Shown here one piece after another: positions 3,822 through 44,411 of a stretch of DNA of 45,658 bases (positions within the stretch are counted from its first letter, which is position 1; the number at the start of each line of letters is the position of its first letter). The notes under the pieces are model-generated. The model did not search any database, was not told the origin of the DNA, and saw nothing but the letters and a program-made list of their open reading frames with translations. A program made the translations under genes and the position numbers. Source of the stretch: Escherichia phage vB_VIPECOMC04; sequence record PQ423993.1; one strand, given 5' to 3'.

Positions 3822-4262
3822 TTATCCTAATAGTTGTTTGGTAATAATCTTGCCGCCGGTGTTGGTGTCGAACTTCGATGCAACGGCTACGCCACCATGC
3901 GCCGAATACCCACATTCCATAGCCGCCAGTGCATAAGGAGAGCCGGACCCAACGGCGGCAAAGCCGTCTGCAATTGGAATAACCGAACTAAGGGCACAAT
4001 CCCATGATTTGTAGAACTCCACCTTACACAACGTTTCTATGTCTTTAACCCACACCAGGGCAGAGAAATCAAAATCATAATGCTTAGGCACTAAAATACC
4101 GTCGTCCTTCACTAAAAGGATTCCAACCCCGGCATCACCAACCACCCCGATAACAACAAATTCGTTCTCATATATCTTTGTGTCTGTGTTGTAATAGTTA
4201 CTTCCACTCACAACACGCGTGTCACAAGCCATTGTCTTTCCGTCGAATGCGATAGTAGTCAT
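3822..4262 (-). CDS. HslV-like / proteasome-beta-like Ntn-hydrolase peptidase
   Basis: N-terminal MTTIA (Thr directly after Met) and GSGSPYALAA match the E. coli HslV MTTIV and GSGGPYAQAA signatures as recalled; about 30 aa shorter than HslV. Confidence 0.6.
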   Translation of the reverse strand: MTTIAFDGKTMACDTRVVSGSNYYNTDTKIYENEFVVIGVVGDAGVGILLVKDDGILVPKHYDFDFSALVWVKDIETLCKVEFYKSWDCALSSVIPIADGFAAVGSGSPYALAAMECGYSAHGGVAVASKFDTNTGGKIITKQLLG

Positions 4263-4597
4263 TTATGTCTCCAGATGTATTGTCGTCTCTGCGGTTTCGT
4301 CGGAATATCATCGTATCCCAGCGATTTCCAGTAATTAAATAACCGATTAGCGATTGCTGCGCGTTCCGGTGTTTTGAACTCACCAAGATTCACGGCCTTC
4401 CCGTTCTGGAATCCGCAGGCGCGGACTGCTTTGCGTCTGGCTTGAATCTCAGGGTACAGCGCGTTACGGCGGCGCTTGTATATTCGGGTGTTCGTTCTCG
4501 GTGACAGCGGCGCAAGGCCGCTTCGTTTCAGGATGTCAGTTGCAAGGCTCATATTCCGAGAATCTCGCGGGCCATTTCTTCTGTAACTTTCGAACAA
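4259..4597 (-). CDS. AP2-like DNA-binding domain protein
   Basis: Segment RRKAVRACGFQNGKAVNLGEFKTPERAAIANRLFNYW resembles the AP2 domain found at the C-terminus of the HNH endonucleases in this genome; no HNH motif present. Confidence 0.4.
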   Translation of the reverse strand: MFESYRRNGPRDSRNMSLATDILKRSGLAPLSPRTNTRIYKRRRNALYPEIQARRKAVRACGFQNGKAVNLGEFKTPERAAIANRLFNYWKSLGYDDIPTKPQRRQYIWRHK

Positions 4598-5206: not shown

Positions 5207-5221
5207 ACGATAGTCATGTTC

Positions 5222-5629
5222 TCACTCCTGTGTGTCAATCTTGTATTCCACTATGTCTGCGTATGTTCTATCCCAAATCCATGACCGCTTTTCTGCTGCT
5301 ACACTGTGTTTCGGCTCCTCCCCGTTGCGATACCGGATAAATACCATAGTCCCATCCGGCACAGGTTGTCGTGCACCATAATGCGGCCTCCAGGCGTTGT
5401 ACTGAGTATCTTCCTTACGGCAACCAGATTGCTCTGCTGCTATATAAGCGCCTACGTCACCTGTAGCTGTAGCCAACGCCTTACGCAACTCCTTAATATG
5501 TTCTGACGCATCACGTAACTGATTCTTGAGTGACAACACCTCGTGCGCCAGGTCTTCGCACTGGTTGCCATTTACCTGCTGCCGTAACTGGCCAATCAGG
5601 TACTCGAATACCTCGTTTTTGTTACTCAT
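5222..5629 (-). CDS. hypothetical protein
   Basis: ORF track, start moved to ATG 5627-5629 (MSNKNEVFEY); coiled-coil-like N-terminus. Confidence 0.4.
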   Translation of the reverse strand: MSNKNEVFEYLIGQLRQQVNGNQCEDLAHEVLSLKNQLRDASEHIKELRKALATATGDVGAYIAAEQSGCRKEDTQYNAWRPHYGARQPVPDGTMVFIRYRNGEEPKHSVAAEKRSWIWDRTYADIVEYKIDTQE

Positions 5630-5754
5630 CCTCAACCCCCATTTTTATCGCTTTAGTGTCACCGTCGCGCACCGAAGTGCTACCCATTATTTCGTAAGCA
5701 TCTACCAGTTCGCCTAAAGTAAATTCACTGTACATCTTCTGTCTCTCCTCTCGT

Positions 5755-6027
5755 TTACTCAACAGCGCCGGTTATCGCTATAAGCCCGGTATTACCACGG
5801 CGGCGATACTTACGAATCACAGTTTTAAGTTCGTCGTTACTACTCTGATGCCCGAAAGTGATCGGCAACTCGTCTCCGCCTGACATCCCGAACTCAGTGT
5901 CTGTCGGTTTGTTCCGCCACCCCTGAATAAATCCGTTGCGGTCGCGTGTAACATATCGGTAGTTATTCGGGAGGGGTAACTCAAGCCCCTCAAAATCAAC
6001 GGTCACGGTGTAACTGTTAAAATTCAT
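5755..6027 (-). CDS. hypothetical protein
   Basis: ORF track, start moved to ATG 6025-6027 (MNFNSY). Confidence 0.4.
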   Translation of the reverse strand: MNFNSYTVTVDFEGLELPLPNNYRYVTRDRNGFIQGWRNKPTDTEFGMSGGDELPITFGHQSSNDELKTVIRKYRRRGNTGLIAITGAVE

Positions 6028-6197
6028 AGTCAATTACCCCGAACTCATTTATGATTTGGGCCTTGTAGAAGTTGCCGTTTGATGCCAGGTGATACGCCTG
6101 CGCCATAGTCATCTCGCGATAAGTTGCTGCGCTGTTTTCGAATTCCATAACCATCAAAGTAACCATCTTCCGTCTCTCCTCTCGTTTGCGTAAATGA

Positions 6198-6226
6198 ATA
6201 GTAGCCTATTCTATCTTACTATGCAA
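6198..6226 (-). promoter_or_regulatory. sigma70-like promoter (class B) with operator palindrome
   Basis: Minus-strand reading TTGCAT-17-TACTAT; the palindrome GAATAGT-ag-CCTATTC (6196-6211) overlaps the -10; lies upstream of the gene starting at 6166. Confidence 0.45.
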
Positions 6227-6300
6227 GTAAATTTTATTGGTGCTTGTATTGTTGCATCTCCTGCAATAGTCGCTTCTATTGTTGCGTTTGGTGAAATAGA

Positions 6301-6340
6301 ACAAAAATGAGAAAAATGATACGCTGCTGTGTAGCAGCGT
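6301..6340 (-). terminator. intrinsic terminator
   Basis: ACGCTGCT-gtgt-AGCAGCGT hairpin; A-rich 6301-6320 gives a U-rich tract on minus. Confidence 0.5.
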
Positions 6341-6676
6341 AAGTCACTAAGCCAAATAGTAACCTATTGACCTGTTACACCACCTGTTACACCAGCACGA
6401 GCCAGCACACCAGCTTTCCACGCCCGCCACGCGAGACGCGTCTTAACGTTCAGGTACTCTTTCTTCGAACCCTTGTTAACCGGCAGACCCTCTACGACAG
6501 CCCACCGTTCGAATGCCTGTCTCATACCAGAACCTCGCATTCATCCCGATACACGAACAATAACGACCCTTTGTACTCAATCATAAAACCATAATGGTTG
6601 CTGCTGAACGCCAGGAAAACATCACCTACCGAGATACCGAAATCTATAAGCCTGCGGTCAGTTATTCGTATTCTCA

Positions 6677-6970
6677 TTAACGGCAACCTCCCTCAGAGTC
6701 GTCAGCACGAGCATCATGATTCGATGCCGTTCTCATAAACAATTTGCCCTTGCGCTGTAATAAGTCCATCGTTACCGCACCTGCGCCTGACTTATTAGGG
6801 CGACGCAGTATGCTAAAGTTCCATACCCTGGCCTTTGTTACGTCTCTGGCGTTACACACCCACAGAGCACCATTTTCTCTTAGTTCCAGTAAATCAGAAA
6901 TGCTGAAATTATTTACCGGGATAAACCCGCTAATGAACTGGAGTTCGCATTGATGTAATTCTTCCATCAC
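6677..6970 (-). CDS. hypothetical protein
   Basis: ORF track. Confidence 0.35.
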   Translation of the reverse strand: MMEELHQCELQFISGFIPVNNFSISDLLELRENGALWVCNARDVTKARVWNFSILRRPNKSGAGAVTMDLLQRKGKLFMRTASNHDARADDSEGGCR

Positions 6971-7158
6971 TTCGCCCCTTTGAATTTAAAATTGTTGCCG
7001 ATGAGTTTTATTTCGTACTCTCGGTAATACGCCGCGTAATCTAACCCGTGCCCCCTGAGTAAGCTAACGACATAAGAACTTCGGTACACTGTCGATTTCT
7101 TTTCAATAATACCTAAGCTACCGTACATCGTTTTCACCAACTGACCCTTCTTAAACAT
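6967..7158 (-). CDS. hypothetical protein (first gene of the leftward transcription unit)
   Basis: ATG at 7156-7158 with GGAGTGAAGG upstream; product MFKKGQLVKT... Confidence 0.45.
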   Translation of the reverse strand: MFKKGQLVKTMYGSLGIIEKKSTVYRSSYVVSLLRGHGLDYAAYYREYEIKLIGNNFKFKGAK

Positions 7159-7192
7159 AACCTTCACTCCTCAGTCTCGTTTCGATAAGTGA

Positions 7193-7221
7193 ATAGTATC
7201 CTATTATGTTGGGGTGTGCAA
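7193..7221 (-). promoter_or_regulatory. sigma70-like promoter (class B) with operator palindrome
   Basis: Minus-strand reading TTGCAC-17-TACTAT; spacer accccaacataatagga is identical to the plus-strand copy at 29936-29952; palindrome GAATAGT-at-CCTATTA at 7191-7206. Confidence 0.55.
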
Positions 7222-7276
7222 GAGAATAGTTACGTTGCCGTTGTTGTGCCTTTATTCTTATTACTTGGTAACTAAA

Positions 7277-7315
7277 GGGCAGGCTTAAGGCCTGCCCGGT
7301 AAGGGTTACATTTTT
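7277..7315. terminator. strong hairpin with T-run, candidate insulating terminator
   Basis: GGGCAGGC-ttaag-GCCTGCCC stem at 7277-7297 flanked by GTAAC/GTTAC, then TTTTT at 7311-7315; lies in the ORF-free divergent control region. Confidence 0.4.
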
Positions 7316-7579
7316 ACGGTTGCGAATCATTCGGCACTTTAAGAAAATCAGATACTTAAGAGATATGCTGTCGATGTGAATAGAGCTTGCCCAGGGCAAC
7401 CGGAGATACTAAGGAAAGTAAAGTTACGATAATTCTTGTGTTCAGTAAACTGCCGCCTAACACTTCGCGTTGGGCGCTCGTTTTCGGCGGGTTTTACAAG
7501 GTGAACAGGAATCAAAGTAACTAAGATATAGAAGCACCTTAAACGAAGATTTTCATAATGTCAATAGGTGTGATTATGT

Positions 7580-11241: not shown

Positions 11242-11514
11242 ATGATTTACCAACTCTACCGTGCCGTTGACAGGCGGGATAACACAGAGGCGCTATGGTT
11301 ATTGCGTGCGCCGTCCGGTGCTCACCAGATGGAAGAGATGGCGTACTTAGGCAAAGTACCGCGGGCTAAAGATATAAGCCGTCATGTGTCGCAGATTAAG
11401 CGCACGACTTTTGCCAAGCCTGACTTTTATGTCTTCGAGTCGATGTATGGATGGGCCATGCATTGCCAGCACCCGACCAGACATTTAATTGACCAGTGGG
11501 AGAGCAGGGTATGA
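11242..11514 (+). CDS. hypothetical protein
   Basis: ORF track. Confidence 0.4.
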   Translation: MIYQLYRAVDRRDNTEALWLLRAPSGAHQMEEMAYLGKVPRAKDISRHVSQIKRTTFAKPDFYVFESMYGWAMHCQHPTRHLIDQWESRV

Positions 11515-11858
11515 CGGATAAATGGTGGCTTAATTTGCGCAGCGGTGACAAGGTTTACACCGTCGGTGACCGCAGAAAGAACAGCGGCGTAGCTACTGTG
11601 TTACAAAACGGCAAAAAGTACATCCACATTGCGCATGAAGCCCGGGCGCTCCGCGTGAATAAATCTTCTGGTAGGCTTGAGGATTACCCGAAAACATTAA
11701 TATACAAAAGTGAAAAGCATCACATGGCCGCTGTTGACGCAAGACGTCAGTTCGCAGGAATGTTGCGACAGTTAAGCGACTTACATCGCGATGATTCTTT
11801 CACACCCTCAGAAGAACAGCTACAGGCATTAAACTTGTATTTGGAGAGTTTACGATGA
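11511..11858 (+). CDS. hypothetical protein
   Basis: ATG 11511 overlaps the upstream stop (ATGA); ORF track frame. Confidence 0.4.
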   Translation: MTDKWWLNLRSGDKVYTVGDRRKNSGVATVLQNGKKYIHIAHEARALRVNKSSGRLEDYPKTLIYKSEKHHMAAVDARRQFAGMLRQLSDLHRDDSFTPSEEQLQALNLYLESLR

Positions 11859-13096
11859 TTCTAAAAGAACGCGGCGGCAATAACGATGTTCACGCCTTAC
11901 TTTCGCCGTCAGGTGCTAAAAAATGGCTGTCATGCGCTGCATCACTGGCCTGTGAAAAAGATATTCCTAACACGTCGGGTAAATCCGCCGTTACGGGGAC
12001 AGCGTGCCACACCATAGCTGAAGTCCATCTCAACGCCTATATCCGCGGCACTGCGTTGCCGTTAGAGCGTGAAGTTGGCGCTTACGTGCTGGATGAGGGT
12101 AAAGGCCAGATTAAGGCGCTAATCAGCCCGATGAAAGGCGCGGTACTGATTACGGCGGACATGATTGAGCAGGTGCGCAAGTACACCGACTACTGCAAAG
12201 CGATTATCGACGTTGCAACTTACGCAAAGCTGGAGATGCGGGTAAATCTTACTGAGGTGCTGCATCCTGGTTACGAAGGCGTTGAGACATTCGGAACTGC
12301 TGACCTTGTTGCCGTTCAGGAACTGGCGAACACAGACGAGCACATGCTCATTATCGGAGACCTTAAAACAGGACGGCATCGTGTTGAAGCGAAAGAAAAC
12401 AAGCAGCTTATGCTCTACGCTCTCGGTGTTTATCGCCGACTCAAGAGACGTTATAACATCACCGCGGTTCGTCTGGCCATCTTTCAGCCATACGCTGGCG
12501 GCGCGTCGGAGTGGGACATCTCGGTTGAAGGTCTGGAACTGTTCGCTAAGTTTGCGCAGAAACGGGCGCTGTTAGCTCTTGATGCGTATTTCCGTGGTAA
12601 AAAGAACCTGAAAGCGTCGGACTTCAGGCCGTCTGTCGACGGTTGCCAATGGTGCCGTTTCTCAGAGCAGTGCGCCGCGCGTACAAAAACCGTCAACGCG
12701 GTGCTGGCGGAAGAACTGGAGGACGACTTTGCGCTGGAACTGACGCCGGAGCAACTCGTCGCTGAGTATGAGAAGCTGCCGCTGTTGCGCCAGCACATCG
12801 ATAAGGTTGAGAAAGCTATGGCTGCTGCGTTGCATTCCGGTAAGAAAGTTCCTGGGTACAAGCTGGTTGAAGGTAAGATGGGCAATCGTGCGTGGAAAGA
12901 CGCGGAGAAAGTAACAGAACTCTACGGCGACAAGCTGACTAAAGAAGTGCTCATGACGCCAACCGAAGCTGTTAAAGTGATACCGGAAGAAGAACTGAAA
13001 GACTTCATCACACGTAAGCCAGGTGCCCCATGCATCACAACGGCAGACGACAAACGGCCTGAGTGGAATCAGGTTAGTGAAGAAGATTTGGAATAA
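11855..13096 (+). CDS. PD-(D/E)XK exonuclease, Cas4/RecB-like with Fe-S cysteines
   Basis: Motifs IIGDLKTG and QLMLYALG plus Cys pattern C...CQWCRFSEQC; ends ...VSEEDLE. Confidence 0.7.
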   Translation: MILKERGGNNDVHALLSPSGAKKWLSCAASLACEKDIPNTSGKSAVTGTACHTIAEVHLNAYIRGTALPLEREVGAYVLDEGKGQIKALISPMKGAVLITADMIEQVRKYTDYCKAIIDVATYAKLEMRVNLTEVLHPGYEGVETFGTADLVAVQELANTDEHMLIIGDLKTGRHRVEAKENKQLMLYALGVYRRLKRRYNITAVRLAIFQPYAGGASEWDISVEGLELFAKFAQKRALLALDAYFRGKKNLKASDFRPSVDGCQWCRFSEQCAARTKTVNAVLAEELEDDFALELTPEQLVAEYEKLPLLRQHIDKVEKAMAAALHSGKKVPGYKLVEGKMGNRAWKDAEKVTELYGDKLTKEVLMTPTEAVKVIPEEELKDFITRKPGAPCITTADDKRPEWNQVSEEDLE

Positions 13097-13101
13097 AGTG
13101 T

Positions 13102-13130
13102 TGACACCTGAATAGTTAGCTATTATAGTT
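13102..13130 (+). promoter_or_regulatory. sigma70-like promoter, class A, with operator
   Basis: TTGACA-17-TATAGT; palindrome GAATAGT-ta-GCTATTA at 13111-13126; upstream of the SSB gene. Confidence 0.6.
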
Positions 13131-13184
13131 CTAATCACTGGCCGGGCAGCTCCCGGAGTAAACTGAAAACTGAGGAATCGAGAA

Positions 13185-13811
13185 ATGGGGCTGAAATTAA
13201 ATCTGCGTAAAGTAAACACTGCCTGGGTTAACGTATTCGAACGCGAAAAAGACCGTGAAAATGATGATGGTTCAATCACTAAAGGTCAGTACAGCGCGAC
13301 TATTATCCTGCCGTCCGACCACGCGCAAATCGACGCGCTCTACGACACCGTTTACGCTGTAGTTGAAGAAGCGTTAGGTGCAGCCGCCGCTGAGAAGTGG
13401 ATGAAGTCTAACTACGGCGAAGGTAAGCACATGGATAAATGTGCGATTAAAGACATTGCTGAGCGTGACAATCCGTTTGAAGACTTCCCGGAGGGCTTCT
13501 ACTTCAAAGCGAAGGCACAGAAACAGCCGCTGATTGTTACCTCTAAAAAAGGTGAGACTCAGGTAGAGCAGGACTTCAATGTAGACGGCGAACAGATTGA
13601 AGGTGAACAAGTTTACAGCGGCTGCGTCGCTAACGTAAGCGTCGAAATCTGGTTCAGCCAGAAATACAAAGTCCTCGGCGTTAACCTGCTGGCTATTAAA
13701 TACGTAGGCGAAGGTAAAGCGTTCGGCGGTTCTAAAGTCGCCGCAAGCGTCAATGACCTGGAAGATGACGAAGAAGAAGAAGCACCGCGCCGCGAACGTC
13801 GCCGCCGCTAA
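13185..13811 (+). CDS. ssDNA-binding protein, T7 gp2.5-like
   Basis: Beta-rich core resembling gp2.5-type SSBs; tail DLEDDEEEEAPRRERRRR (acidic then basic). Confidence 0.55.
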   Translation: MGLKLNLRKVNTAWVNVFEREKDRENDDGSITKGQYSATIILPSDHAQIDALYDTVYAVVEEALGAAAAEKWMKSNYGEGKHMDKCAIKDIAERDNPFEDFPEGFYFKAKAQKQPLIVTSKKGETQVEQDFNVDGEQIEGEQVYSGCVANVSVEIWFSQKYKVLGVNLLAIKYVGEGKAFGGSKVAASVNDLEDDEEEEAPRRERRRR

Positions 13812-13830
13812 TATCTGAATGAATTTAACT

Positions 13831-13856
13831 AAGGCCCTTCATTGGGCCTTTTTACC
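13831..13856 (+). terminator. intrinsic terminator
   Basis: AAGGCCC-ttcatt-GGGCCTT followed by TTTACC. Confidence 0.5.
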
Positions 13857-13865
13857 GGAGTCAGA

Positions 13866-14339
13866 ATGGAACATATAAAAGATTTTCTTAGCTATAACCG
13901 AGAAACCGGAATATTCATATGGATACAACCTACATACAGACGAGGGAAACCTGGAGACATCGCAGGATGCATCAATAGTAGTGGATACTGGCGAATACCT
14001 TATATGGGTAGATATTACATGGCCCACAGGCTCGCTTGGTTTTTCGAGTACGGTGAATGGCCCGAGGGTCCTCTTGACCACATAAACCGTGACAGGTTAG
14101 ACAATAGGATTTCTAACCTAAGGAAAGCAACCACCGCAGATAATGTGCGAAACGCTAAAAATAAGGGGGCTAGAACGGGAGTTAAGGGAGTAGTTAAAAC
14201 CGACAACCGATTTTATGGGCGGGTACATTTTAACTACAAAAGTTATAATGCGGGTAGCTACGGAACTCTTGAAGAAGCAGAAAGCGCTGTAAAGAAATTA
14301 AGAGAAAAATTGCATAAGGAATTTTATTGCCATGACTAG
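13866..14339 (+). CDS. HNH homing endonuclease with AP2 domain
   Basis: HRLAWFFEYGEWPEGPLDHINRDRLDNRISNLR (HNH) followed by an AP2-like segment; abuts the DNA polymerase start. Confidence 0.8.
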   Translation: MEHIKDFLSYNRETGIFIWIQPTYRRGKPGDIAGCINSSGYWRIPYMGRYYMAHRLAWFFEYGEWPEGPLDHINRDRLDNRISNLRKATTADNVRNAKNKGARTGVKGVVKTDNRFYGRVHFNYKSYNAGSYGTLEEAESAVKKLREKLHKEFYCHD

Positions 14340-16530
14340 TTTATTATACCTGGATACCGAGACATTCTCCGAAGCAGACTTAAAGAAAGTCGGGTCGTAT
14401 GCGTATGCGGAGCACCCAACGACAGAGGTTATAATTTGTACATATGCCGTTGATGATGGCCCTGTAGAAATATGGGATTGCACTTCCGAACCTGTAATGC
14501 CGATAAGCCTCTGTGTGGCTCTCCGTAATGTTATGCGTGGGCGTATGAAAATCGTGGGCCATAACTTTTTAATGTTCGACAGGCTCGTCATGAAACACTG
14601 CTGGGACTTTGATATTCCTGTAGGCAACACCATTGATACGATGATTTGGGCGTTTCGTCACGCGCTGCCGGGTTCCCTCGATGCGTTGTGCGAAGTGCTG
14701 GGCGTGTCAGCAGACAACGCGAAAGACAAACGAGGCAAGGCGCTGATTCAGCGTTTCTCTAAACCGACGCCGAAGAACTACAAAATCCGTCGCTACACCG
14801 CTGAAACACACCCGGACGAGTGGGCACTGTTCATCAAATACGCCGTGAGTGACATCACCGCAATGCGTGAAGTCTTCCATAAGCTGCCGCGGTGGGGTAA
14901 CTCCGAGTTAGAAGACCGTGTACTGGAACTGGACCAGTTAATCAACGACCGCGGGTTTAAGGTTGACGTTGCTCTGGCAGAAGCCGCGATTGAAGCTGTG
15001 GAGAAGCACAAGGCACAGTTACAGGAAGAAGCCCAACGCAAATACGGCGGCTCGCTTACCGGAAAGGACTTCCTTCCTATTCTGCGTGAACTTGCCCCAG
15101 CGCACCGCATACACAACGCACAGAAGTCGACGCTTAACGACCTGTTGGCGGACGATGATTTACCGGACGATGCTCGCACGATTATCGAAATGCGCCTCGG
15201 GGCCGCATCCACCGCGTCAACGAAATATAACCCATTGCTGTTGGGCCGCTCATCGGACGACCGCCGCCGGGGTTGTTTACAGTACGGTGGGGCAAAACGC
15301 ACTTTGCGGTGGGCGGGTAAAGGCTTCCAACCACAGAACCTGGCGCGCGGGTACTATCACGATGATGAACTGGATAAAGGCATTTCAGCGTTACTTAAAG
15401 GCCGGGCACACCGCCGTTTTGATGTAGCCAAGCTAACGGCATCGACGGTACGTAGCTGCATCATACCGGAAGTGGGGCATAAGTTTGTTGTTGCCGATTA
15501 CTCTAACGTTGAGGGTCGTGGGCTTGTGTGGTTGGCAGGCGAAGAAACCGCGCTTGATACTTTCCGCGCCGGGTTGGATATTTATTGCGTAACTGCAGGT
15601 AAGATGTTTGGCATGGACCCCGACGATATTAAGAAAAACTTTAAGGAAATCAGACAGATAGGCAAGGCTTGCGAACTGGGCCTCGGTTACGAGGGAGGCG
15701 TCGGAGCATTCGTTACGTTCGCCAAAAACTTAGGCCTCGACCTTATTGAGATGGCTAAAACAATGGACGGTACGTTCCCCGACCACATCTGGGCCGCTAC
15801 CGCACGCGGGTATGAGTGGGCGCGCATCCAGGAAGCCAAGCGCCCCCCGCATCCAGGTGAGAAGGATGACCGACCATCGTATATTCTGGACAAGAAAGTG
15901 TGGCGCACCTGCGACGCAATCAAGCGTATGTGGCGCGAGTCACACCCGGAAACAGTAGCGTTCTGGCGCGACCTCAAAGACGGTATTTTAGCCGCTGTAA
16001 GAAATCCGGGTCGTGAATTTTGGGCGGGGGCGCATCTGCGCAAGAATGGCGAGCGCGCTATCCGAATCTGGAGAACAGTAGAAACCGATTCATCCGGTAG
16101 GAAGGTTCCCGGTTGGTGGTTGTGTATGGAGTTGCCGTCGGGCCGTATCCTCTCGTATCCAGGAATCGGCGTTAGCGTGACAAAAGAAACAGACGAAGAC
16201 GGACGGGTAAACACGAATGTGCGAATCAAGTACCAAGGTGAAAACCAGTTAACCCGCCAATGGACTACCCTGTACACCCACGGCGGCAAAGCCTGCGAAA
16301 ACATTGTTCAGGCGCTGTGCCGTGATTTACTCGCATATGCGATGGTTAATGTTGAGGGTGGCGGGTATCCAATCGTGCTTTCGGTACACGATGAACTGGT
16401 ATGTGAAACTCCAGATACGCCGGATTACACGGTGCCTGAGCTGGAAAAATTAATGTGCACGTTGCCTGAGTGGGCAGAAGGCTTCCCTCTTGTCGCGGAA
16501 GGTAGCGAAATGTACAGATATGCTAAATGA
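14332..16530 (+). CDS. family A DNA polymerase with 3'-5' exonuclease
   Basis: Exo I YLDTETFS; motif A DYSNVEGR; motif B RQIGKACELGLGYEGG; motif C VHDELVCE. Confidence 0.9.
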   Translation: MTSLLYLDTETFSEADLKKVGSYAYAEHPTTEVIICTYAVDDGPVEIWDCTSEPVMPISLCVALRNVMRGRMKIVGHNFLMFDRLVMKHCWDFDIPVGNTIDTMIWAFRHALPGSLDALCEVLGVSADNAKDKRGKALIQRFSKPTPKNYKIRRYTAETHPDEWALFIKYAVSDITAMREVFHKLPRWGNSELEDRVLELDQLINDRGFKVDVALAEAAIEAVEKHKAQLQEEAQRKYGGSLTGKDFLPILRELAPAHRIHNAQKSTLNDLLADDDLPDDARTIIEMRLGAASTASTKYNPLLLGRSSDDRRRGCLQYGGAKRTLRWAGKGFQPQNLARGYYHDDELDKGISALLKGRAHRRFDVAKLTASTVRSCIIPEVGHKFVVADYSNVEGRGLVWLAGEETALDTFRAGLDIYCVTAGKMFGMDPDDIKKNFKEIRQIGKACELGLGYEGGVGAFVTFAKNLGLDLIEMAKTMDGTFPDHIWAATARGYEWARIQEAKRPPHPGEKDDRPSYILDKKVWRTCDAIKRMWRESHPETVAFWRDLKDGILAAVRNPGREFWAGAHLRKNGERAIRIWRTVETDSSGRKVPGWWLCMELPSGRILSYPGIGVSVTKETDEDGRVNTNVRIKYQGENQLTRQWTTLYTHGGKACENIVQALCRDLLAYAMVNVEGGGYPIVLSVHDELVCETPDTPDYTVPELEKLMCTLPEWAEGFPLVAEGSEMYRYAK

Positions 16531-17042
16531 TGATGGGGTGGTTTATGAGAGATTTAATTAATTGGCATGACCATTTCTACTACGAACCTGACACGGGGAA
16601 GATACGATGGAAGTATTCCCCGAGACACAGTATAAACGCCGGAGACGAAGCCGGTAGTCCAAGTAAGAGAGGATACATCTGTATCGTCGTCAGAGGGGTT
16701 AGTTACAGGGCTAATCGTATCGCATGGGGGATGTATAACAATGACCGTTTAGGGCCTGATGATGAAGTAGACCATATAAATCATATCCTGGATGATAATC
16801 GTGCATGCAACCTTCGGAAAGTATCCCGTACTGATAATAACCGAAACGCATCTCGCAGAAAAGATAACAAGTCAGGTATCACTGGTGTGCACTGGAACGC
16901 ACGGGCGGCTAAATGGAAAGCAGGTATATTCGTTGACGGTAAACTTATATTCCCGGGCCACCATGACAATATATTTGACGCGGCTTGTGTACGGAAATCC
17001 GCGATTGTTCGCTACGGCTTTCATGAGAATCACGGAGGTTAG
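16527..17042 (+). CDS. HNH homing endonuclease with AP2 domain
   Basis: HNH core EVDHINHILDDNRACNLR plus AP2-like C-terminus; overlaps the DNA polymerase stop. Confidence 0.8.
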   Translation: MMMGWFMRDLINWHDHFYYEPDTGKIRWKYSPRHSINAGDEAGSPSKRGYICIVVRGVSYRANRIAWGMYNNDRLGPDDEVDHINHILDDNRACNLRKVSRTDNNRNASRRKDNKSGITGVHWNARAAKWKAGIFVDGKLIFPGHHDNIFDAACVRKSAIVRYGFHENHGG

Positions 17043-17043
17043 A

Positions 17044-17175
17044 ATGCTAAGTAAACTGATTATCGCGATACTGGCGGGATTCGCCGCCGGTGTCTATTGT
17101 CACGAGGGCCAATACGGCATGATGGTCGCCGTATTGGGTATGTTCATCGCAATTTATCTGTGGGTGCTGGAATGA
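17044..17175 (+). CDS. small membrane peptide (43 aa)
   Basis: ATG 17044 with GGAGG upstream; hydrophobic throughout. Confidence 0.3.
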   Translation: MLSKLIIAILAGFAAGVYCHEGQYGMMVAVLGMFIAIYLWVLE

Positions 17176-17257
17176 AAATCTACTGGTTCTACGAAGAAGA
17201 CTGCCGAATCTGTCCGCGCTGCGGTATTGCGCATACGAAACGGGAGGGGTGCGTATT

Positions 17258-17410
17258 ATGAGAATGTTCGTATTCGGGTCGATAGTAACCATGCTCGCAC
17301 TGTCACTCGGTGCGGGAATAGCTGCTATGTTCTGTTACGGCCTGTTCTTTCAGTTTGCCGGTGTTGCCATTCTAGGCGGGGCTTTCCTTACCTGGATGCT
17401 GCGGTCATGA
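17258..17410 (+). CDS. small membrane peptide (50 aa)
   Basis: ATG 17258; two hydrophobic segments; its stop overlaps the VRR-NUC start (ATGA). Confidence 0.3.
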   Translation: MRMFVFGSIVTMLALSLGAGIAAMFCYGLFFQFAGVAILGGAFLTWMLRS

Positions 17411-17739
17411 CTAAAGAGGGGCGCATCCAGAAATACGCAAAAGAGCGATTCGAGGCCATTGGTGGCCTCGTTCGTAAATTGTCGTACGAAAACAGAGTGG
17501 GAGCCCCTGACCTGCTGGTAATTCTACCCGGCGGCATCGTCTGGTTCGTCGAGGTTAAGAAAGACGAAAACACGAAGCCAGACCCGCACCAGCTACGGGA
17601 ACATGAGAGATTCCGAAAACGTGGAGTTAATGTTTTTGTCGTTGGTTCGTTTAAACAGGTTGACGCCCTAATAGCATACTATTATAGTTATCACATACCC
17701 CAACAATATAAGGAATTGAGAAATGAAATACGAATATGA
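17407..17739 (+). CDS. VRR-NUC domain nuclease
   Basis: GAPDLLVILPGGIVWFVEVK fits the PD-(D/E)XK VRR-NUC signature; start taken at ATG 17407 within the track ORF. Confidence 0.6.
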   Translation: MTKEGRIQKYAKERFEAIGGLVRKLSYENRVGAPDLLVILPGGIVWFVEVKKDENTKPDPHQLREHERFRKRGVNVFVVGSFKQVDALIAYYYSYHIPQQYKELRNEIRI

Positions 17740-17914
17740 CCGCAAGCCCGCACGTGACATCGTACCGGGCGACATGATTTTCAACGTTAAGACACGTCGT
17801 CCTGTTGCCGTTGATACGGTGTTCGTCGAGTCGAATGGTAAACTGGTTATCGAAGATGCGACCGGTAACGTTACGGCGTTCGGGCGTAAAGAGCTGGTGC
17901 TGGTGGTGAAATGA
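17723..17914 (+). CDS. hypothetical protein
   Basis: ORF track. Confidence 0.4.
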   Translation: MKYEYDRKPARDIVPGDMIFNVKTRRPVAVDTVFVESNGKLVIEDATGNVTAFGRKELVLVVK

Positions 17915-18855
17915 ACTATTACAATGAGTGGGATAAAGGCGCAGCCGCGTGGCTGCGTGAATTAATAAAACAGGGTCACATACCTTTTGGAGTTGTAGAT
18001 GAAAGAAGCATTACAGAAGTTAAGCCAGAAGACCTCGACGGGTTCACCCAGTGTCATTTTTTCGCTGGTATCGGCGGCTGGCCTCTCGCGCTCAGACTTG
18101 CGGGAGTTTCGGAAAATACGCCTCTCTGGACGGGAAGCCCGCCTTGCCAACCGTTTAGCGCGGCAGGAAAGCAACTCGGACATTTCGACCCGAGACACCT
18201 CGCGCCGGTATTCCTTGACCTCATCAGCGAGTGCCGCCCTCCAGTCCTCTTTGGGGAACAGGTTGCGCCAGCAATTGCAAAATCGTGGATGTGCGATTTA
18301 CAAACTCATCTGGAAGGAGAAGACTACTCCGTCGGGTTTGCCGTACTCCCAGCTTGTAGCGTCGGTGCCCCGCACAAACGCGACAGACTGTTCTTCGGCG
18401 CGTACAACCTGGCTGAGTCCTTGTGCGCAGAACGGGACCGTGAACGGCTACACGGATTGGGAAAAAGTAATCAAACGCAAGGAAGCAGGACGGCAGCAGA
18501 ACCTACGGGACGTGGTTATTCTGGCGGCTTGGTCTACCCCGACAGCGAACGACTTCAAAGGGAGCGGAGAGACAGTGATTCGCAAGGACGGAAAGGACAG
18601 AACATTCGACAGGCTGGACTACTCAACGGAACAGGGACTGAAAATAACACAACCAATTCGGATAACAGTTTCTGGTCCGACGCTGACTGGCTCGGATGCA
18701 GGGACGGAAAGTTCAGGCCAGTTGAATCCGGCACATTCCCGCTGGCTAATGGGATACCCGCCAGAGTGGGACGATTGCGCGGTTACGGCAATGCCATCGT
18801 CCCGCAAGTAGCCGCTGAGTTTATAAAGGCATTTATGGGGGGTATTCATGTCTAA
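17911..18855 (+). CDS. DNA C5-cytosine methyltransferase (frame integrity questionable)
   Basis: FAGIGG (motif I), SPPCQPFSAAGK (IV), GEQV (VI), GAPHKRDRLFF (VIII) and C-terminal GYGNAIVPQVAAEF (X); the motif IX-like segment is in the overlapping +1 frame (see findings). Confidence 0.7.
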   Translation: MNYYNEWDKGAAAWLRELIKQGHIPFGVVDERSITEVKPEDLDGFTQCHFFAGIGGWPLALRLAGVSENTPLWTGSPPCQPFSAAGKQLGHFDPRHLAPVFLDLISECRPPVLFGEQVAPAIAKSWMCDLQTHLEGEDYSVGFAVLPACSVGAPHKRDRLFFGAYNLAESLCAERDRERLHGLGKSNQTQGSRTAAEPTGRGYSGGLVYPDSERLQRERRDSDSQGRKGQNIRQAGLLNGTGTENNTTNSDNSFWSDADWLGCRDGKFRPVESGTFPLANGIPARVGRLRGYGNAIVPQVAAEFIKAFMGGIHV

Positions 18856-20436: not shown

Positions 20437-22784
20437 TAACTGTTTGTCAGGGTAGCCACTAATGTCTCAAGCGCTATAATCCTTTTCTCTAACTGAGCTG
20501 CTTTACGTCGCTGTAACGCAGCCTCTAATATCAATACCTCATCATAACGAATACCATACCGCTCCCCTGCCGCCGTAGCTTTTGTTAATACTTCCCCAGA
20601 TTCCTCATCAATAATTTCCGGAGACGCTTCCCACTTATCGTAGCACAGGAAACCGTACTTAGTCGCGTCCAACCCGTGCCGGGTAAACGCCTCAATTGCT
20701 CGTTGGGCTACTACTCCAAAGTGCCACCTAGCTGCATCCTCCCCCTTCTCTGCAACCCTATCCAGGTACTTATATTGAACTAAATTAACTTCAGCCCAAG
20801 CGTCTAACATAGCGTCAGTTAATTCCAGGGGTAGTGTCTTGGCTCTCTCGTCAGACGTAACCGTAAACGCTGTTTGAGTGAATCCGCCGGACAAAGCGAG
20901 ACTTGCCGACCCGATAGTGACGGTGTTTGCACTGGATGGTGTAATAGCCGTCGGGGCTATTTGAATATACGCCGATTCGTCAGAGGCTAAGCGTAAATTA
21001 CCATTAACCAGAGAAATAGTTCGAGAAGTAGTTCGAGAAGTACCATCAGATGTGAGTAATTTTATCTGAGAGGTCGTACCTCCACCAATAGCCAAAGATG
21101 TAGCCCCATCGGAAATTAGTCTGAATTTATCAGCTGTCACAAAAGGCAATGCAGAAGTATCTATATACTTAGTGAACCACTCAAACCTACCGGACATGGA
21201 CCCTATGTATTGTCCTATAGCGGGGGCGTGTACCACGTTACTGGTGGTAGTACCATCAATGCTAGAGACCCCGGTTATAGTAGATAGTGAACTAAGAAGA
21301 CTGTTCTTGGGTCCAGGGTGCTTTACTTCCACAAAGTTACGGGTAGTCCCTGTCGCTAGCGTAACAACCCCGGAAGCACTATACATAGGGAAAACCGATG
21401 CGTAGTTATTACTAGCTCCGTCTAAAAACCTAATAGAAGTCGCGGTTTGCGTTTGCCCTAAACTATTAGTTCCGCTGCACCCAACCATTAGAATATTATC
21501 AGCGGCATTATAGTTGCCTTGTAATGTAACGCCGTGTGCTTGCGTGGCCTCGGAGGAGGAGTAATCAGCTACAACATTTGCCACCAGATTACCTGAACCC
21601 TTGCCGGCGATCACAGCGGCATACTTAGCGTTATTAGCAACAACATTACTGATAATATTACTGCTAGGGGCATTGGTCGTCTCGGTGCCATTATAAACAA
21701 CGTGCTGACAGCTTTGCCCAATGACGCCACTAACAACATTACATTTAGCATCTGTTTTCAACTCAACCGCCCCAAATTGGGGGTAGTTTCGGGCGATAAC
21801 ATCGTTGATTATAGTATTACTTGCGGACTCAAACAGCACGCACCCCGCTGTTTTATTTGTAGCATACCCGGAGTAGTCGCCCCGTATGCCGCTTACAATG
21901 TATCCAGACGGACCCCCATCACTAGGGTATGCTATTAAACTAAATCCAGTTCCCTTTGCATTTTTAAAATCAATACCTTTAATAGTAACGTCCTGCCCAC
22001 CGGCGAAGGAAACCTGCTGACCCTGTGTGAAGTCCGTTGCCTTATTTCCTACAATACTCAGGGTGCTAAGTAGCCCTCCTGCAGGTTTATCAAAGATTAA
22101 GTGGTTTCCAGAATCGTTTGATTGTTTTAAAACCCCACCCCCTGTTCCGAATAGAGAGCATGTCGGGTGGGAGAGTAGCGACGTACTATACTCCCCTTGC
22201 GGTACAAGCACCCCGTTACTAGCTGTAAGCGCTCGGTTAAGGGCGTTTGTGTAATCAGGGTCAGTACCTAAATAGAAGTCCAGAACGGAAACTACTTCTC
22301 TATTTTTATCGTGTTGCGTCCTGCCGACAGCGTCGGTAAATGGTTGTCGGACGCCGACCATGGCATCACCTAATGTCGCATTGTCTGTGCTGGATAAATC
22401 ATTGCGCAAATCCGGGTCAGTACGCGGCTCCCAGTTAGCGTTTCCTACCGGGTTAAACCCAGCCGGGACAACAACTGGTAAGGTACCTGCATACGAGTAC
22501 CACGTCTTGCTTACAGGGTCATACACCACTTTGTCGCGGTCATTAGCGGTTAACGTACCACCAGTGGAAAAGTCCCATGACACCGGAGAAAAACCAGCGC
22601 CACGCAACACGGCTGGTAACGTCTTTTGGGTCTGCCCTGTAACGGCATTTGTCGCGTAATCAATATCGGCGCCACCTGCAACACCGCCGGATTTGCCGGT
22701 GATAACCTCGGCTTCGAAAATCTGGTGTTTCTTGGCGGTCTGTAAATCCGCCAGGCTTAAAACGTCACCGCATCCGCTTGACAT
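20436..22784 (-). CDS. tail fiber / tailspike with beta-helix region and C-terminal S74 intramolecular chaperone
   Basis: C-terminal SDERAKT...WHFGVVAQRAIEAFTRHGLDATKYGF matches the auto-cleaving chaperone domain of endosialidase/L-shaped fibers; central G/N/S/T-rich repeats. Confidence 0.85.
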   Translation of the reverse strand: MSSGCGDVLSLADLQTAKKHQIFEAEVITGKSGGVAGGADIDYATNAVTGQTQKTLPAVLRGAGFSPVSWDFSTGGTLTANDRDKVVYDPVSKTWYSYAGTLPVVVPAGFNPVGNANWEPRTDPDLRNDLSSTDNATLGDAMVGVRQPFTDAVGRTQHDKNREVVSVLDFYLGTDPDYTNALNRALTASNGVLVPQGEYSTSLLSHPTCSLFGTGGGVLKQSNDSGNHLIFDKPAGGLLSTLSIVGNKATDFTQGQQVSFAGGQDVTIKGIDFKNAKGTGFSLIAYPSDGGPSGYIVSGIRGDYSGYATNKTAGCVLFESASNTIINDVIARNYPQFGAVELKTDAKCNVVSGVIGQSCQHVVYNGTETTNAPSSNIISNVVANNAKYAAVIAGKGSGNLVANVVADYSSSEATQAHGVTLQGNYNAADNILMVGCSGTNSLGQTQTATSIRFLDGASNNYASVFPMYSASGVVTLATGTTRNFVEVKHPGPKNSLLSSLSTITGVSSIDGTTTSNVVHAPAIGQYIGSMSGRFEWFTKYIDTSALPFVTADKFRLISDGATSLAIGGGTTSQIKLLTSDGTSRTTSRTISLVNGNLRLASDESAYIQIAPTAITPSSANTVTIGSASLALSGGFTQTAFTVTSDERAKTLPLELTDAMLDAWAEVNLVQYKYLDRVAEKGEDAARWHFGVVAQRAIEAFTRHGLDATKYGFLCYDKWEASPEIIDEESGEVLTKATAAGERYGIRYDEVLILEAALQRRKAAQLEKRIIALETLVATLTNS

Positions 22785-37822: not shown

Positions 37823-38062
37823 CTATTCCAGAATATTCCTCACGTAATCCTGCAACATGAACACTTTCAGTCTCAGTTGCCGTGCGCATTCGGCGTTCTG
37901 AACGTCGATAGCTAAATCCTCGTCCGCGTCGCTACTTGGCGGTGCCAGTTTGCACGGTGGTTGCATCATCGTCGTATCCGGGGATGGAATTGGCGTTTGC
38001 AACGGCGCGGGACTTGAGCACCCGTAGCACCCTATAACTAAGAGCAATATTGGCAGTCGCAT
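37823..38062 (-). CDS. Rz1-like outer-membrane lipoprotein (o-spanin candidate)
   Basis: Signal peptide with lipobox-like LLVIGC, then proline-rich SPAPLQTPIPSP. Confidence 0.45.
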   Translation of the reverse strand: MRLPILLLVIGCYGCSSPAPLQTPIPSPDTTMMQPPCKLAPPSSDADEDLAIDVQNAECARQLRLKVFMLQDYVRNILE

Positions 38063-38607
38063 TTGAAAAAATCTCCATGTAGCTTCTTGGCAGCTTGCAC
38101 GTAGGCCATGTGTGCGTCGACGGGGGAGTCGAACTGACCGAGATATTTGGTCTTGTTGCGGATTCTTATGTCCGCACGGAATCTGCCGTTCGGGAACCTA
38201 GAAACCCCCTTGAACCCTGTACTATTAGCGGACGTGAGACCAACGTTACGGCTGTTCTCTTGGCTAGTAGCAAGCCTGAGATTTTCTATACGATTGTTGA
38301 GTGGGTTCCCGTCAATGTGGTCTATCTCATATGGTGTCGGAATCGGCCCATTGAAAAGTTCCCATATAAGCCGGTGCGCTTGAAACGCCTTACCCATCCA
38401 TCTAACCTCTATCGTCTGTCGCCGTTTTGCGCCTTTCGGCGTGGTCAGGCACCCTGCCGGGGTTCCTGTTTTATTAGCGAGCTTACTGCTACGCCAGTAA
38501 AGAACCCCATCGTCGTAGTAGAAAGTATCATTCAGTATAGTCATATCCTGGTATCCCGTTTGCATTGCTGATAGCGTCGTATTTGACTCTAACTCTATCA
38601 GCGTCAA
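38038..38607 (-). CDS. HNH homing endonuclease with AP2 domain
   Basis: HRLIWELFNGPIPTPYEIDHIDGNPLNNRIENLR plus AP2-like segment; overlaps both spanin candidates; true start probably internal. Confidence 0.75.
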   Translation of the reverse strand: MTLIELESNTTLSAMQTGYQDMTILNDTFYYDDGVLYWRSSKLANKTGTPAGCLTTPKGAKRRQTIEVRWMGKAFQAHRLIWELFNGPIPTPYEIDHIDGNPLNNRIENLRLATSQENSRNVGLTSANSTGFKGVSRFPNGRFRADIRIRNKTKYLGQFDSPVDAHMAYVQAAKKLHGDFFKCDCQYCS

Positions 38608-38887
38608 ACTTGCAAGATACTTTATTGGGCCTACTTATGTACTTAACGACTTCACGGGTAATCACCTCTGATTTCGTCTTGCCTTCGTTGTCGGCGGCTG
38701 CGGCCTTTGATTCATCCTGCTGCTGCCGTTGTGTTTTCTTCGCTAACTCAGCCTGCGCTTTCTGCTGTTGCTGCGAAACGAGATTCGCCCGGCCTTCATT
38801 CCAGCCGCTGCGGTACTGATAGATGCCGTGTGCGTAAGCCAGGATGATGAAACATGCTCCTGCTACGACAGTTGCTTTAAGATTCAT
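38528..38887 (-). CDS. Rz-like inner-membrane spanin candidate
   Basis: N-terminal TM anchor MNLKATVVAGACFIILAYAHGIY, then a Q/A/K-rich coiled coil. Confidence 0.45.
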   Translation of the reverse strand: MNLKATVVAGACFIILAYAHGIYQYRSGWNEGRANLVSQQQQKAQAELAKKTQRQQQDESKAAAADNEGKTKSEVITREVVKYISRPNKVSCKFDADRVRVKYDAISNANGIPGYDYTE

Positions 38888-42864: not shown

Positions 42865-43019
42865 AGATATAGACCCTCGGGTATGGGTGTCAAAAGCCTA
42901 ATAAAAATTAGGTTGCAAGTCACCAGAAACTCGCTACTGCGAGTTTTACTTGCACCGGGCTGGCGGTCAATATATCTTATCATTAAGCAGATAAAAATGA
43001 ATTGTTGGAGGGGGTACGC

Positions 43020-44399
43020 ATGGGCAGAAGAATAACTGAAGAAGAAATCAAAAACCGGTTAGCTATGTTTGGGTTTAAATTGGTTAAATATGGCGGGTCG
43101 CAAGTAGCAAAATCCGTTATAAAATGCCCCAATGGACACGAGGAATTGAAGTCGCTTAACACCTTCACAGCTAATGGTGTGCGCTGTAAATCTTGCGCTG
43201 CTGCTGAAAGGAGTCTGGCGTACAGCACCGACGAGACCGAAGCGAGAAGGATAGTCGAGGACATGGGGTATTCGCTGATAAAATACGGCGGCGATTTGTA
43301 CCGCAAAAAATCTACCGTCCAATGTGCAAACGGTCATGTGCGCGAAGTTCGCATAGGAAATATGGTTAAGGGTCATCGCTGCAAAAAGTGCGTGGCGGAA
43401 GCAATGTGTTTGGCGGAAGACGGGGTTAACACCAGACTACCAGATGGGGTCAAGATGGATTTTTACTGCGGCAACACGCGGGGGCTTAGTCTATTTTCTT
43501 GCGAAAAAGGGCACTCGTGGTCCGCATCCGTGAATAACGTAGTGTCTCAACAAACGAAATGTCCTAAATGCTCTAATAACGTAAGTGGTATGGAAAAAGA
43601 AGTTCTGTCGTTTATCCGCGGAGTATACCCAGGTGTTGTCAATACGTCCGTACGGTCGCTTATCTCGCCGTTTGAGCTGGACATAGTATTGCCGGAGATT
43701 AAGGTGGTCATAGAATTTAACGGCATCTATTGGCATTCCGAGGCGAATGGTAAACACCGTAACTACCACATAAATAAGAGATTAGCGTGTGAGAAACTTG
43801 GGTACAGGCTGATAAGCGTACGAAGCGACCTTTGGTTAGAGAAGCGAGAGCATATTGAGCGCATTTTGAAGAACGCGGTAGGGGTACGTACTGTGTCTAT
43901 TTTTGCCAGAAAATGTCGTGTGGTAGAAATAGCCAACAAAGACGCATTCCGGTTCTGTGAGGACAATCACATCCAGGGTGGGACAAAGGCTACAAAAGCG
44001 TATGCATTACTTCACGCTGGTGAGGTGGTTGCGGTAATGACTTTGGTACATTGGCGCAGCAAGGACTCATGGGAGCTGGTGCGATATTGCACCAGTACGT
44101 CCGTGCCCGGTGGCCTAAGTAAGCTGTGGAAACATGTGACGCAAGAAAACAACATTAAGCAAGCGTTCACTTATACCGACCGTGACCTTTTCACCGGTGC
44201 ATCTTACGCAGAAGCTGGGTTTATATTTGATAGCTGCTCCGTAGGGTTTCGCGTTGTCGTAGGAACTCGTACAGAATCCCGCCAGAAATGGGGCAAAGCT
44301 CCTGATGGTCTTACCCAAACAGAGTGGTACGAACGAGAAAAAGTGACGCGCATATGGGATAGCGGTCAGGATAAGTGGGAATGGGTTAAAGGGGCATAA
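43020..44399 (+). CDS. homing-endonuclease-like protein (three Cys4 zinc-ribbon repeats plus nuclease-like domain)
   Basis: ATG 43020 with GGAGGGGG upstream; repeats CPNGHE...CKSC, CANGH...CKKC, CEKGH...CPKC; ELDIVLPEIKVVIEFNGIYWHSE resembles Vsr/DUF559-type nuclease cores; opposite strand to its neighbours. Confidence 0.45.
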   Translation: MGRRITEEEIKNRLAMFGFKLVKYGGSQVAKSVIKCPNGHEELKSLNTFTANGVRCKSCAAAERSLAYSTDETEARRIVEDMGYSLIKYGGDLYRKKSTVQCANGHVREVRIGNMVKGHRCKKCVAEAMCLAEDGVNTRLPDGVKMDFYCGNTRGLSLFSCEKGHSWSASVNNVVSQQTKCPKCSNNVSGMEKEVLSFIRGVYPGVVNTSVRSLISPFELDIVLPEIKVVIEFNGIYWHSEANGKHRNYHINKRLACEKLGYRLISVRSDLWLEKREHIERILKNAVGVRTVSIFARKCRVVEIANKDAFRFCEDNHIQGGTKATKAYALLHAGEVVAVMTLVHWRSKDSWELVRYCTSTSVPGGLSKLWKHVTQENNIKQAFTYTDRDLFTGASYAEAGFIFDSCSVGFRVVVGTRTESRQKWGKAPDGLTQTEWYEREKVTRIWDSGQDKWEWVKGA

Positions 44400-44411
44400 G
44401 CCCCTTTTTAC

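Follow-up and report, generated by a model that had tools for sequence, protein, structure and literature searches.

Putative homing endonuclease genes of the HNH-AP2 type at both ends of the DNA polymerase gene in a Kagunavirus-like phage

The family A DNA polymerase gene (polA) of Escherichia phage vB_VIPECOMC04 (PQ423993.1) has at each end a small gene for an HNH endonuclease with an AP2-type domain. Are these two genes, here called HEG1 and HEG2, homing endonuclease genes that each occupy their own site, the two halves of one element that carries polA between phages, or proteins that no longer move or that serve the phage in some other way? We have analysed the whole 45,658-nucleotide record, referred to below as the window, together with the related phage sequences. 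The window is a complete Kagunavirus-like genome (~45.7 kb), Kagunavirus (the K1G group) being part of the subfamily Guernseyvirinae. HNH-AP2 homing endonucleases are an established class present in phages, cyanobacteria and protists (Magnani et al., 2004). The data presented here argue for two independent putative homing endonucleases, each associated with its own stretch of polymerase sequence.

Results

The sequence-only reading of this DNA had placed HNH genes on both sides of polA, and three open reading frames (ORFs), all on the plus strand, were found as described, at 13866..14339 (HEG1), 14332..16530 (polA) and 16527..17042 (HEG2). The bracketing of polA by two HNH-AP2 genes is confirmed, so that an essential gene carries an endonuclease gene at each end, a trait of the "HEG-islands" discussed below. 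The polA product has 732 aa and combines the polymerase (Pfam DNA_pol_A; phrog_17, E = 6e-136) with a 3'-5' exonuclease domain. It is encoded by one uninterrupted ORF, with neither an intron nor an intein, and an Rfam scan of the window at the gathering threshold found no family. These data, and the location of HEG1 and HEG2 outside the polA frame at the gene boundaries, ruled out an intron- or intein-encoded origin of the two endonuclease genes.

HEG1 was assigned as an HNH + AP2-type endonuclease gene from the ORF list, Pfam, PHROG and a family profile, and its relationship to HEG2 and to a third gene of the same type, HEG3 (see below), was examined at the protein level. All three products match Pfam HNH_3 above the gathering score (E = 2e-15, 6e-6 and 8e-23 for HEG1, HEG2 and HEG3, respectively) and PHROG 99, "HNH endonuclease" (E of about 1e-57 to 4e-59), and they share 28-36% identity with each other (BLASTP E = 1e-13 to 1e-18). 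The Pfam AP2 signal is weak, with an E value of 2.5e-6 for HEG3 (under the gathering score) and 0.022 for HEG2, and with no match for HEG1. A profile built from 44 sequences of the family matched plant WRI1 at its AP2 domain (E = 1.3e-9) and I-HmuI at its HNH core (E = 2.6e-7), which supports the assignment of the proteins to the HNH-AP2 homing endonucleases by their C-terminal AP2 DNA-binding domain.

Loss of catalytic residues had been named in the sequence-only reading as the sign that the HNH proteins are domesticated remnants. Such a loss was not found: the equivalents of I-HmuI D74, H75, N83 and N96 are invariant across the 44-sequence alignment, HEG1, HEG2 and HEG3 included, and the D-H...N...N pattern is thus kept, the catalytic His being H72 in HEG1. 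The proteins therefore have the HNH_3 domain, the catalytic His with its adjacent Asp and the metal-binding Asn that characterize the I-HmuI type. The ratio of nonsynonymous to synonymous substitution rates (dN/dS) indicated purifying selection on both genes flanking polA, with values of 0.03-0.06 for HEG1 (dS against the window of up to 0.47) and 0.07-0.11 for HEG2.

We have then determined how the two genes are distributed among related phages. The polymerase region matched 439 phage records (K1G-like coliphages and Salmonella phages such as Jersey), the top match being just 93% identical; these records were the set used for presence/absence counts, with contigs from IMG/VR added on top. HEG1 DNA was present in 5 of the 439 records and HEG2 DNA in 2, and IMG/VR contributed three further contigs with HEG1 and one with HEG2. 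Seven genomes carry HEG1 alone (fBC-Eco01, KMB36, EM1, P AB-2017 and the IMG/VR contigs L012-L014), two carry HEG2 alone (XY2 and L026), and both genes are found in the window and in the Escherichia phage vB_VIPECOTPH05A (PQ429079.1; VIPECOTPH05A hereafter), the nearest relative of the window, which is colinear with it over the full length (1-666 with 1-666; 44411-45658 with 44229-45476). K1G, fFiEco03 and M01 have neither gene. HEG1 and HEG2 thus occur independently of each other, and each shows the sporadic presence and absence at one fixed site among close relatives that is expected of homing endonuclease genes. The insertion junctions of both are identical in every carrier, and the comparison with endonuclease-free relatives defined the inserted segments as 13856..14358 for HEG1 and 16527..17043 for HEG2.

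The HEG1 segment (503 bp, plus strand) was delimited by BLAST and MAFFT junctions against K1G and XY2, with the same boundaries against L026: the match to HEG1-free genomes ends at 13855 and restarts at 14359. It replaces 39 bp that, in HEG1-free relatives, hold the polA ribosome-binding site and first codons. To its left, at 13831..13854 on the plus strand, folding revealed a terminator-like hairpin 3' of the gene for the single-stranded DNA (ssDNA)-binding protein (7-bp stem, -13 kcal/mol, z = -2.3 when folded separately), and the equivalent site is an annotated terminator in fBC-Eco01. To its right, HEG1 ends inside polA. The sequence-only reading had each endonuclease gene overlapping polA by a few nucleotides, and for HEG1 the overlap is real (8 nt). 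Both in the window and in distant orthologs, an AAGGA/AAGGAG Shine-Dalgarno-like motif ~10 nt 5' of the polA ATG lies within the codons for the HEG1 C terminus (...LHKEF.C..). Because of this position, HEG1 probably supplies the Shine-Dalgarno sequence of polA, and since its last codons both carry the motif and overlap the polA start codon, the gene appears to be built into the expression of the polymerase.

The same intergenic spot holds other DNA in fFiEco03 (vB_EcoS_fFiEco03, MT711524.1; L007 ~1176-1331), namely an unrelated small Cys-rich ORF (MFFCKHVYRYMKPLPWYADEYRAGYRHVWICRDCMKIRL...) that uses what in K1G is the polA ribosome-binding site and ATG. This extra DNA was considered as a HEG1 remnant, which the unrelated nature of the encoded ORF ruled out. 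The spot 5' of polA seems to be a hotspot for different insertions.

The HEG2 segment (517 bp, plus strand) has the same boundaries in every comparison, being absent from K1G, fBC-Eco01, KMB36, EM1, fFiEco03, P AB-2017 and L012-L014. It is flanked by a 7-bp direct repeat, ATGCTAA, with the left copy at 16520..16526 and the right copy at 17044..17050 (both plus strand). In HEG2-free genomes, a single ATGCTAA copy forms an 11-nt overlap (ATGCTAAGTAA) of the polA stop with the start of a small hydrophobic ORF, which in the window encodes 43 aa and lies 3' of HEG2 (17044..17175, plus strand). HEG2 insertion split polA from this small ORF by duplicating their overlap.

The 4-nt overlap of HEG2 with polA did not stand as well as that of HEG1. 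It exists only if translation starts at the ATG at 16527 (171 aa). The start shared by XY2 and the distant orthologs is the ATG at 16545 (MRDLINW), which gives a protein of 165 aa (16545..17042, plus strand) and leaves a 14-nt spacer after polA. Because this start is conserved, and the ATGs 5' of it in XY2 are out of frame, the overlap is doubtful. In VIPECOTPH05A the HEG2 copy (L001 ~4044-4545; PQ429079.1 17800-18302), unannotated in the record, has an extra T in the T-run after MRDLINWHDHF that causes a frameshift, with the other 155 codons intact and 92% identical. The gene may have been inactivated recently, or the extra T may be a sequencing error in the homopolymer. One HEG1 copy, that of L014 (IMGVR_UViG_3300015181_000003, 3001-3472), is likewise frameshifted, by a 1-nt insertion just 5' of the AP2 domain.

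Each insertion is accompanied by polymerase sequence of its own, so that the carrier allele differs from the endonuclease-free allele near both insertion points. For HEG1, sequence comparison delimited a divergent polA 5' stretch of ~83 codons (~250 bp; 14332..14585, plus strand), which is at least 91.7% identical in all eight of the other HEG1-carrying genomes and ~70-72% identical among the full-length matches listed for HEG1-free records. Its most divergent 146-nt core (14440..14585) matched solely the five HEG1-carrying records among 50,697 phage records. Past ~14585 all polA alleles converge, at 90-99% identity. The stretch encodes MTSLLYLDTE... with a 2-aa deletion, whereas in K1G-type alleles the reading is MSYLFLDFE... 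and the deletion is absent. The DTET motif and the 2-aa deletion are also found in the polymerases of distant phage contigs, with or without a HEG1 ortholog, which suggests that the stretch may have entered from outside the K1G group together with HEG1. No donor was found, since no phage record besides the HEG1 carriers matched among the 50,697. The distant contigs with HEG1 orthologs were considered as donors and rejected: the HEG1-free L031 and L032 share the DTET motif and the deletion too, and overall the contigs are no closer than K1G.

For HEG2, alignment identified ~25 recoded bases at the polA 3' end, covering the last eight codons (16503..16530, plus strand). The three HEG2 carriers that were aligned (the window, XY2 and VIPECOTPH05A) are identical there and end in SEMYRYAK before the stop codon. 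The end differs in all six HEG2-free genomes that align at this position, reading AEMKRYAK, AELKRYAK or QELKRYAK; the M01 row was frameshifted and could not be read.

HEG1 presence did not follow the similarity of the flanks. The left flank of the window is 98% identical to that of the HEG1-free L026 and 93-94% identical to that of most HEG1 carriers. The 3' two-thirds of polA is 97% identical to the endonuclease-free fFiEco03 and to L026, compared with 88-89% to VIPECOTPH05A, which has both genes. Between the window and VIPECOTPH05A there are ~28 differences over 3,100 positions from ~11,480 to 14,605 (7 of them within 13,000-14,605), followed by ~10% divergence from 14,606 onward. The recombination breakpoint between the two phages therefore falls at the right edge of the HEG1 cassette.

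The sequence-only reading had called the two genes paralogous. Their homology was borne out by the alignment of the three genes, but a recent duplication was not. The nearest HEG1 orthologs outside the kagunaviruses (63-71% amino acid identity; L027, L029 and L030) lie directly upstream of polA and overlap its start region, and in these contigs the gene order is exonuclease, ssDNA-binding protein, endonuclease and polA, as in the window. The HEG2 orthologs (58-62%; L030-L033) lie directly downstream of polA and overlap it. L030 has the same bracket as the window, its polymerase (~70% identical in amino acids) having the HEG1 ortholog (63%) on the upstream side and the HEG2 ortholog (60%) on the downstream side; the polA of L033 is also bracketed, by an upstream gene only 44% identical to HEG1. 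Because the orthologs of each gene sit at the matching end of polA in distant phages, HEG1 and HEG2 are not recent duplicates. A recent tandem duplication of one endonuclease was ruled out by this and by their 36% identity over 107 residues. They are old, distantly related, site-specific lineages, each tied to one end of polA.

Two further endonuclease insertions were found away from polA. HEG3 belongs to a 617-bp insertion (38020..38636, minus strand) that separates the scaffold gene from the spanin gene. VIPECOTPH05A and K1G both lack this insertion, with identical boundaries, and it is present in just one other phage, fEg-Eco19. A copy of the HNH-AP2 gene had been placed at 38038..38607; the gene is indeed there, as a mechanically called ORF on the minus strand, and its likely start is revised to 38544 from the fEg-Eco19 annotation. 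The HNH core of HEG3 (window 38269-38353) has 75% nucleotide identity over 85 nt to T7 gene 3.8 and its Yersinia T7-like counterpart.

The distinct zinc-ribbon endonuclease claimed at 43020..44399 is also present. It is a zinc-finger/Vsr-like endonuclease gene (start at 43002 or 43020) that encodes Pfam DUF4379, CapR and MTES_1575 domains (phrog_559, E = 6e-105), and it belongs to a 1543-bp insertion (42868..44410, plus strand) that neither VIPECOTPH05A nor K1G has. The portal and large terminase genes, both on the other strand, flank this insertion. The insertion is 92.5% identical to that of a "Hef-like homing endonuclease" at the same junction in the Salmonella phages Jersey and demigod. 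In the comparison with Jersey, identity is just 77% on the portal side but 90% on the side of the large terminase, which places this endonuclease, again, at a step in similarity between genera.

The share of the genome related to homing endonucleases, put at about 5 percent in the sequence-only reading, had to be corrected: the four endonuclease ORFs account for 6.5% of the genome, and for the four inserted segments the figure is 7.0% (3180 bp). That estimate had included an "orphan AP2" protein at 4259..4597 (minus strand; phrog_9632), which we do not retain. This small ORF had no Pfam AP2 match and no sequence match in the PDB, and no AP2 match above noise. It gave only a 30-column hhalign match (72% probability) in which the stretch RKAVRACGFQNGKAVNLGEFKTPERAAIAN is similar to the final strands and the beginning of the helix of an AP2 domain. 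It is conserved in K1G and VIPECOTPH05A and is therefore not a sporadic element; as an endonuclease-related gene it was not accepted.

Several observations concern relatives and other parts of the window. The polymerase of KMB36 (vB-Eco-KMB36, OR525703.1; L005 2971-3867) has 1031 aa owing to a 299-aa in-frame insertion between RQIGKA and CELGLGY, in the motif B region; the insertion begins with Cys and ends in His-Asn followed by Cys, an intein signature, and no such insertion is present in the window polA. The polA of L032 is also long (1049 aa). The distant contig L031, one of those that have a HEG2 ortholog, shows a Hom_end_hint (intein) Pfam match in its SNF2 helicase gene (5115-7504). More HNH genes of the PHROG 99 type were found in relatives (L005 4932-5429; L006 4103-4600 and 5096 onward; L007 4385 onward; L033 4958-5449), 5' of the VRR-NUC gene or replacing or preceding a methylase or helicase gene, and the whole replication module is a hotspot for this endonuclease family. 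In the window, a cytosine DNA methyltransferase gene (17911..18855; region 17902-18846) is absent from VIPECOTPH05A and present in K1G. At 20442-22589 and 27572-29799, the tailspike region is unmatched in K1G and part of the tape-measure region is unmatched in VIPECOTPH05A; these differences look like ordinary host-range and tail module swaps.

Discussion

We propose, with a probability of about 80%, that HEG1 and HEG2 act independently as free-standing homing endonucleases, each specific for its own site and each with an I-HmuI-type HNH core and an AP2 domain, which would spread by intronless homing. The reading is supported by the catalytic residues, the purifying selection, the presence or absence at fixed boundaries and the recoded polA sequence beside each insertion. 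By analogy with T4 SegF/SegG and I-HmuI, the two proteins would have cleavage activity, target sites and immunity of their own carrier alleles, with homing as their means of spread. In a mixed infection, each enzyme would cut or nick an allele that lacks its gene, close to the insertion point of that gene. Repair of the break with the endonuclease-carrying genome as template would then copy in the endonuclease gene plus neighbouring polymerase sequence. The HEG1 carrier allele would probably be protected by its foreign ~250-bp polA 5' stretch, and the HEG2 carrier allele probably by the ~25 recoded polA 3' bases and by the disruption of the site by the insertion itself. The frameshifted copies (HEG2 in VIPECOTPH05A and HEG1 in L014) fit the degeneration stage of a homing cycle.

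Some observations weigh against this proposal. Homopolymer sequencing errors could account for both frameshifts. That all carriers share the right end of the HEG1-linked stretch may be the result of a single ancestral import and later ordinary recombination instead of repeated homing. HEG1 copies diverge about as much as core genes do (90-96% identity), as they also could after long vertical inheritance combined with loss. Finally, a promoter and terminator scan of 13000..18000 returned no more sites than shuffled sequence did and failed to pick up the hairpin at 13831..13854; with predictions at chance level, it does not establish expression of the endonuclease genes.

The bracket itself calls for comparison with a composite HEG-island, the model of Barth et al. 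(2023) in which both endonucleases would act as one unit moving the whole polA between phages. That polA is flanked on both sides, that VIPECOTPH05A has both genes, and that the bracket is seen again in L030, where each ortholog lies at the corresponding end, and in similar form in L033, would all agree with such a unit. The two genes are, however, mostly found apart (HEG1 only in seven genomes, HEG2 only in two), and the interior of polA is mosaic, its 3' two-thirds being closer to the endonuclease-free fFiEco03 (97%) than to VIPECOTPH05A (~88%). Nor is the bracketed block unusually conserved relative to the rest of the genome: instead of the high nucleotide identity between otherwise dissimilar phages that marks HEG-islands, the L030 polymerase is only ~70% identical in amino acids. 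We consider a single moving unit very unlikely. A broader proposal, which we regard as doubtful, is that HEG1 and the first ~83 polA codons would form a long-lived, co-evolving cassette that supplies the translation start and, with HEG2, makes up a working two-ended HEG-island swapping polymerase alleles. The HEG1 cassette does combine low frequency with strong purifying selection across lineages whose polymerases differ by ~30%. If the proposal were true, the endonucleases would be drivers of the exchange of replication genes, as whole or partial polA alleles, rather than simple parasites.

HEG1 and HEG2 might also be inactive or domesticated remnants that no longer home and descend only vertically, HEG1 for example being kept as the translation start region of polA. 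The overlap with the polA start and the Shine-Dalgarno-like motif, seen in distant orthologs too, would suit such a role, as would the existence of frameshifted copies and the rarity of the genes in sequenced genomes. A spacer or ribosome-binding role would, nevertheless, not need invariant catalytic residues or a dN/dS of 0.03-0.11 over the whole protein, and vertical descent alone does not agree with a spread over genomic backgrounds that mismatches flank similarity, or with a sharp recombination breakpoint at the cassette edge; we judge this explanation decidedly unlikely. Another possibility, which appears very improbable, is an accessory role, in which the HNH-AP2 proteins would not be selfish homing elements but would serve the phage chiefly as nucleases for competition or defence, or control polymerase expression as AP2-type regulators. 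Such a role would fit the strong purifying selection and the deep-rooted, stable association of the genes with polA, and AP2 domains are sequence-specific repressors in other phage proteins (bioRxiv 10.64898/2026.02.23.707548). Against this, more than 98% of the related genomes are without the genes, which are therefore dispensable, and an intact nuclease active site next to recoded target flanks is what homing predicts.

With HEG1 and HEG2 read as independent homing endonucleases, the value of the locus is that of a test case more than of new biology. Natural genomes provide all four combinations of the two genes (+/+, +/-, -/+ and -/-), the junctions are defined to the base, and the linked polymerase stretch is sharply delimited, with a breakpoint at the cassette edge. 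Kagunavirus genomes are small (~41-44 kb) and have been called attractive for synthetic biology; kagunaviruses would be a convenient system for measuring homing, the length of co-conversion tracts and "collaborative homing" at an essential gene. For annotation, ~7% of the genome can be regarded as four dispensable mobile endonuclease insertions.

Intronless homing by free-standing endonucleases has been demonstrated experimentally for T4 SegF, SegG and MobE, whereas for HEG1 and HEG2 we infer it. In both cases an intergenic endonuclease gene lies beside a conserved gene, and the T4 systems feature co-conversion of adjacent markers and resistance through polymorphisms of the carrier allele. Of these T4 enzymes, the Seg proteins belong to the GIY-YIG type, and MobE, although an HNH enzyme, has no AP2 domain. 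I-HmuI, the endonuclease of the SPO1 DNA polymerase intron (PDB 1u3e), resides inside a group I intron and ends in a C-terminal helix-turn-helix; unlike it, HEG1 and HEG2 are free-standing at gene boundaries and have an AP2 domain instead, in a window where Rfam finds no intron.

The closest parallel is given by Barth, Dunham and Seed (2023; PMC10448857), who found that 29% of IPA-HNH endonucleases lie close to a DNA polymerase gene, that endonuclease genes often flank essential genes on both sides, and that the boundaries of genetic exchange are marked by nuclease genes. The window shares with those systems the free-standing genes beside an essential gene, the bracketing and an endonuclease at an exchange boundary. 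It differs in that the HNH domain is canonical Pfam HNH_3 and not the divergent IPA type, and in that the host phage is a Kagunavirus. Each flanking gene occurs without the other, and the conservation of the polymerase is not out of the ordinary, so that the movement of the island as a unit is a feature not seen here. In the portion of the Kagunavirus literature reached by our search, no analysis of this polA-bracketing arrangement was found. The locus is a well-resolved new example, in Kagunavirus, of a pattern known from other phages, and as such of modest interest.

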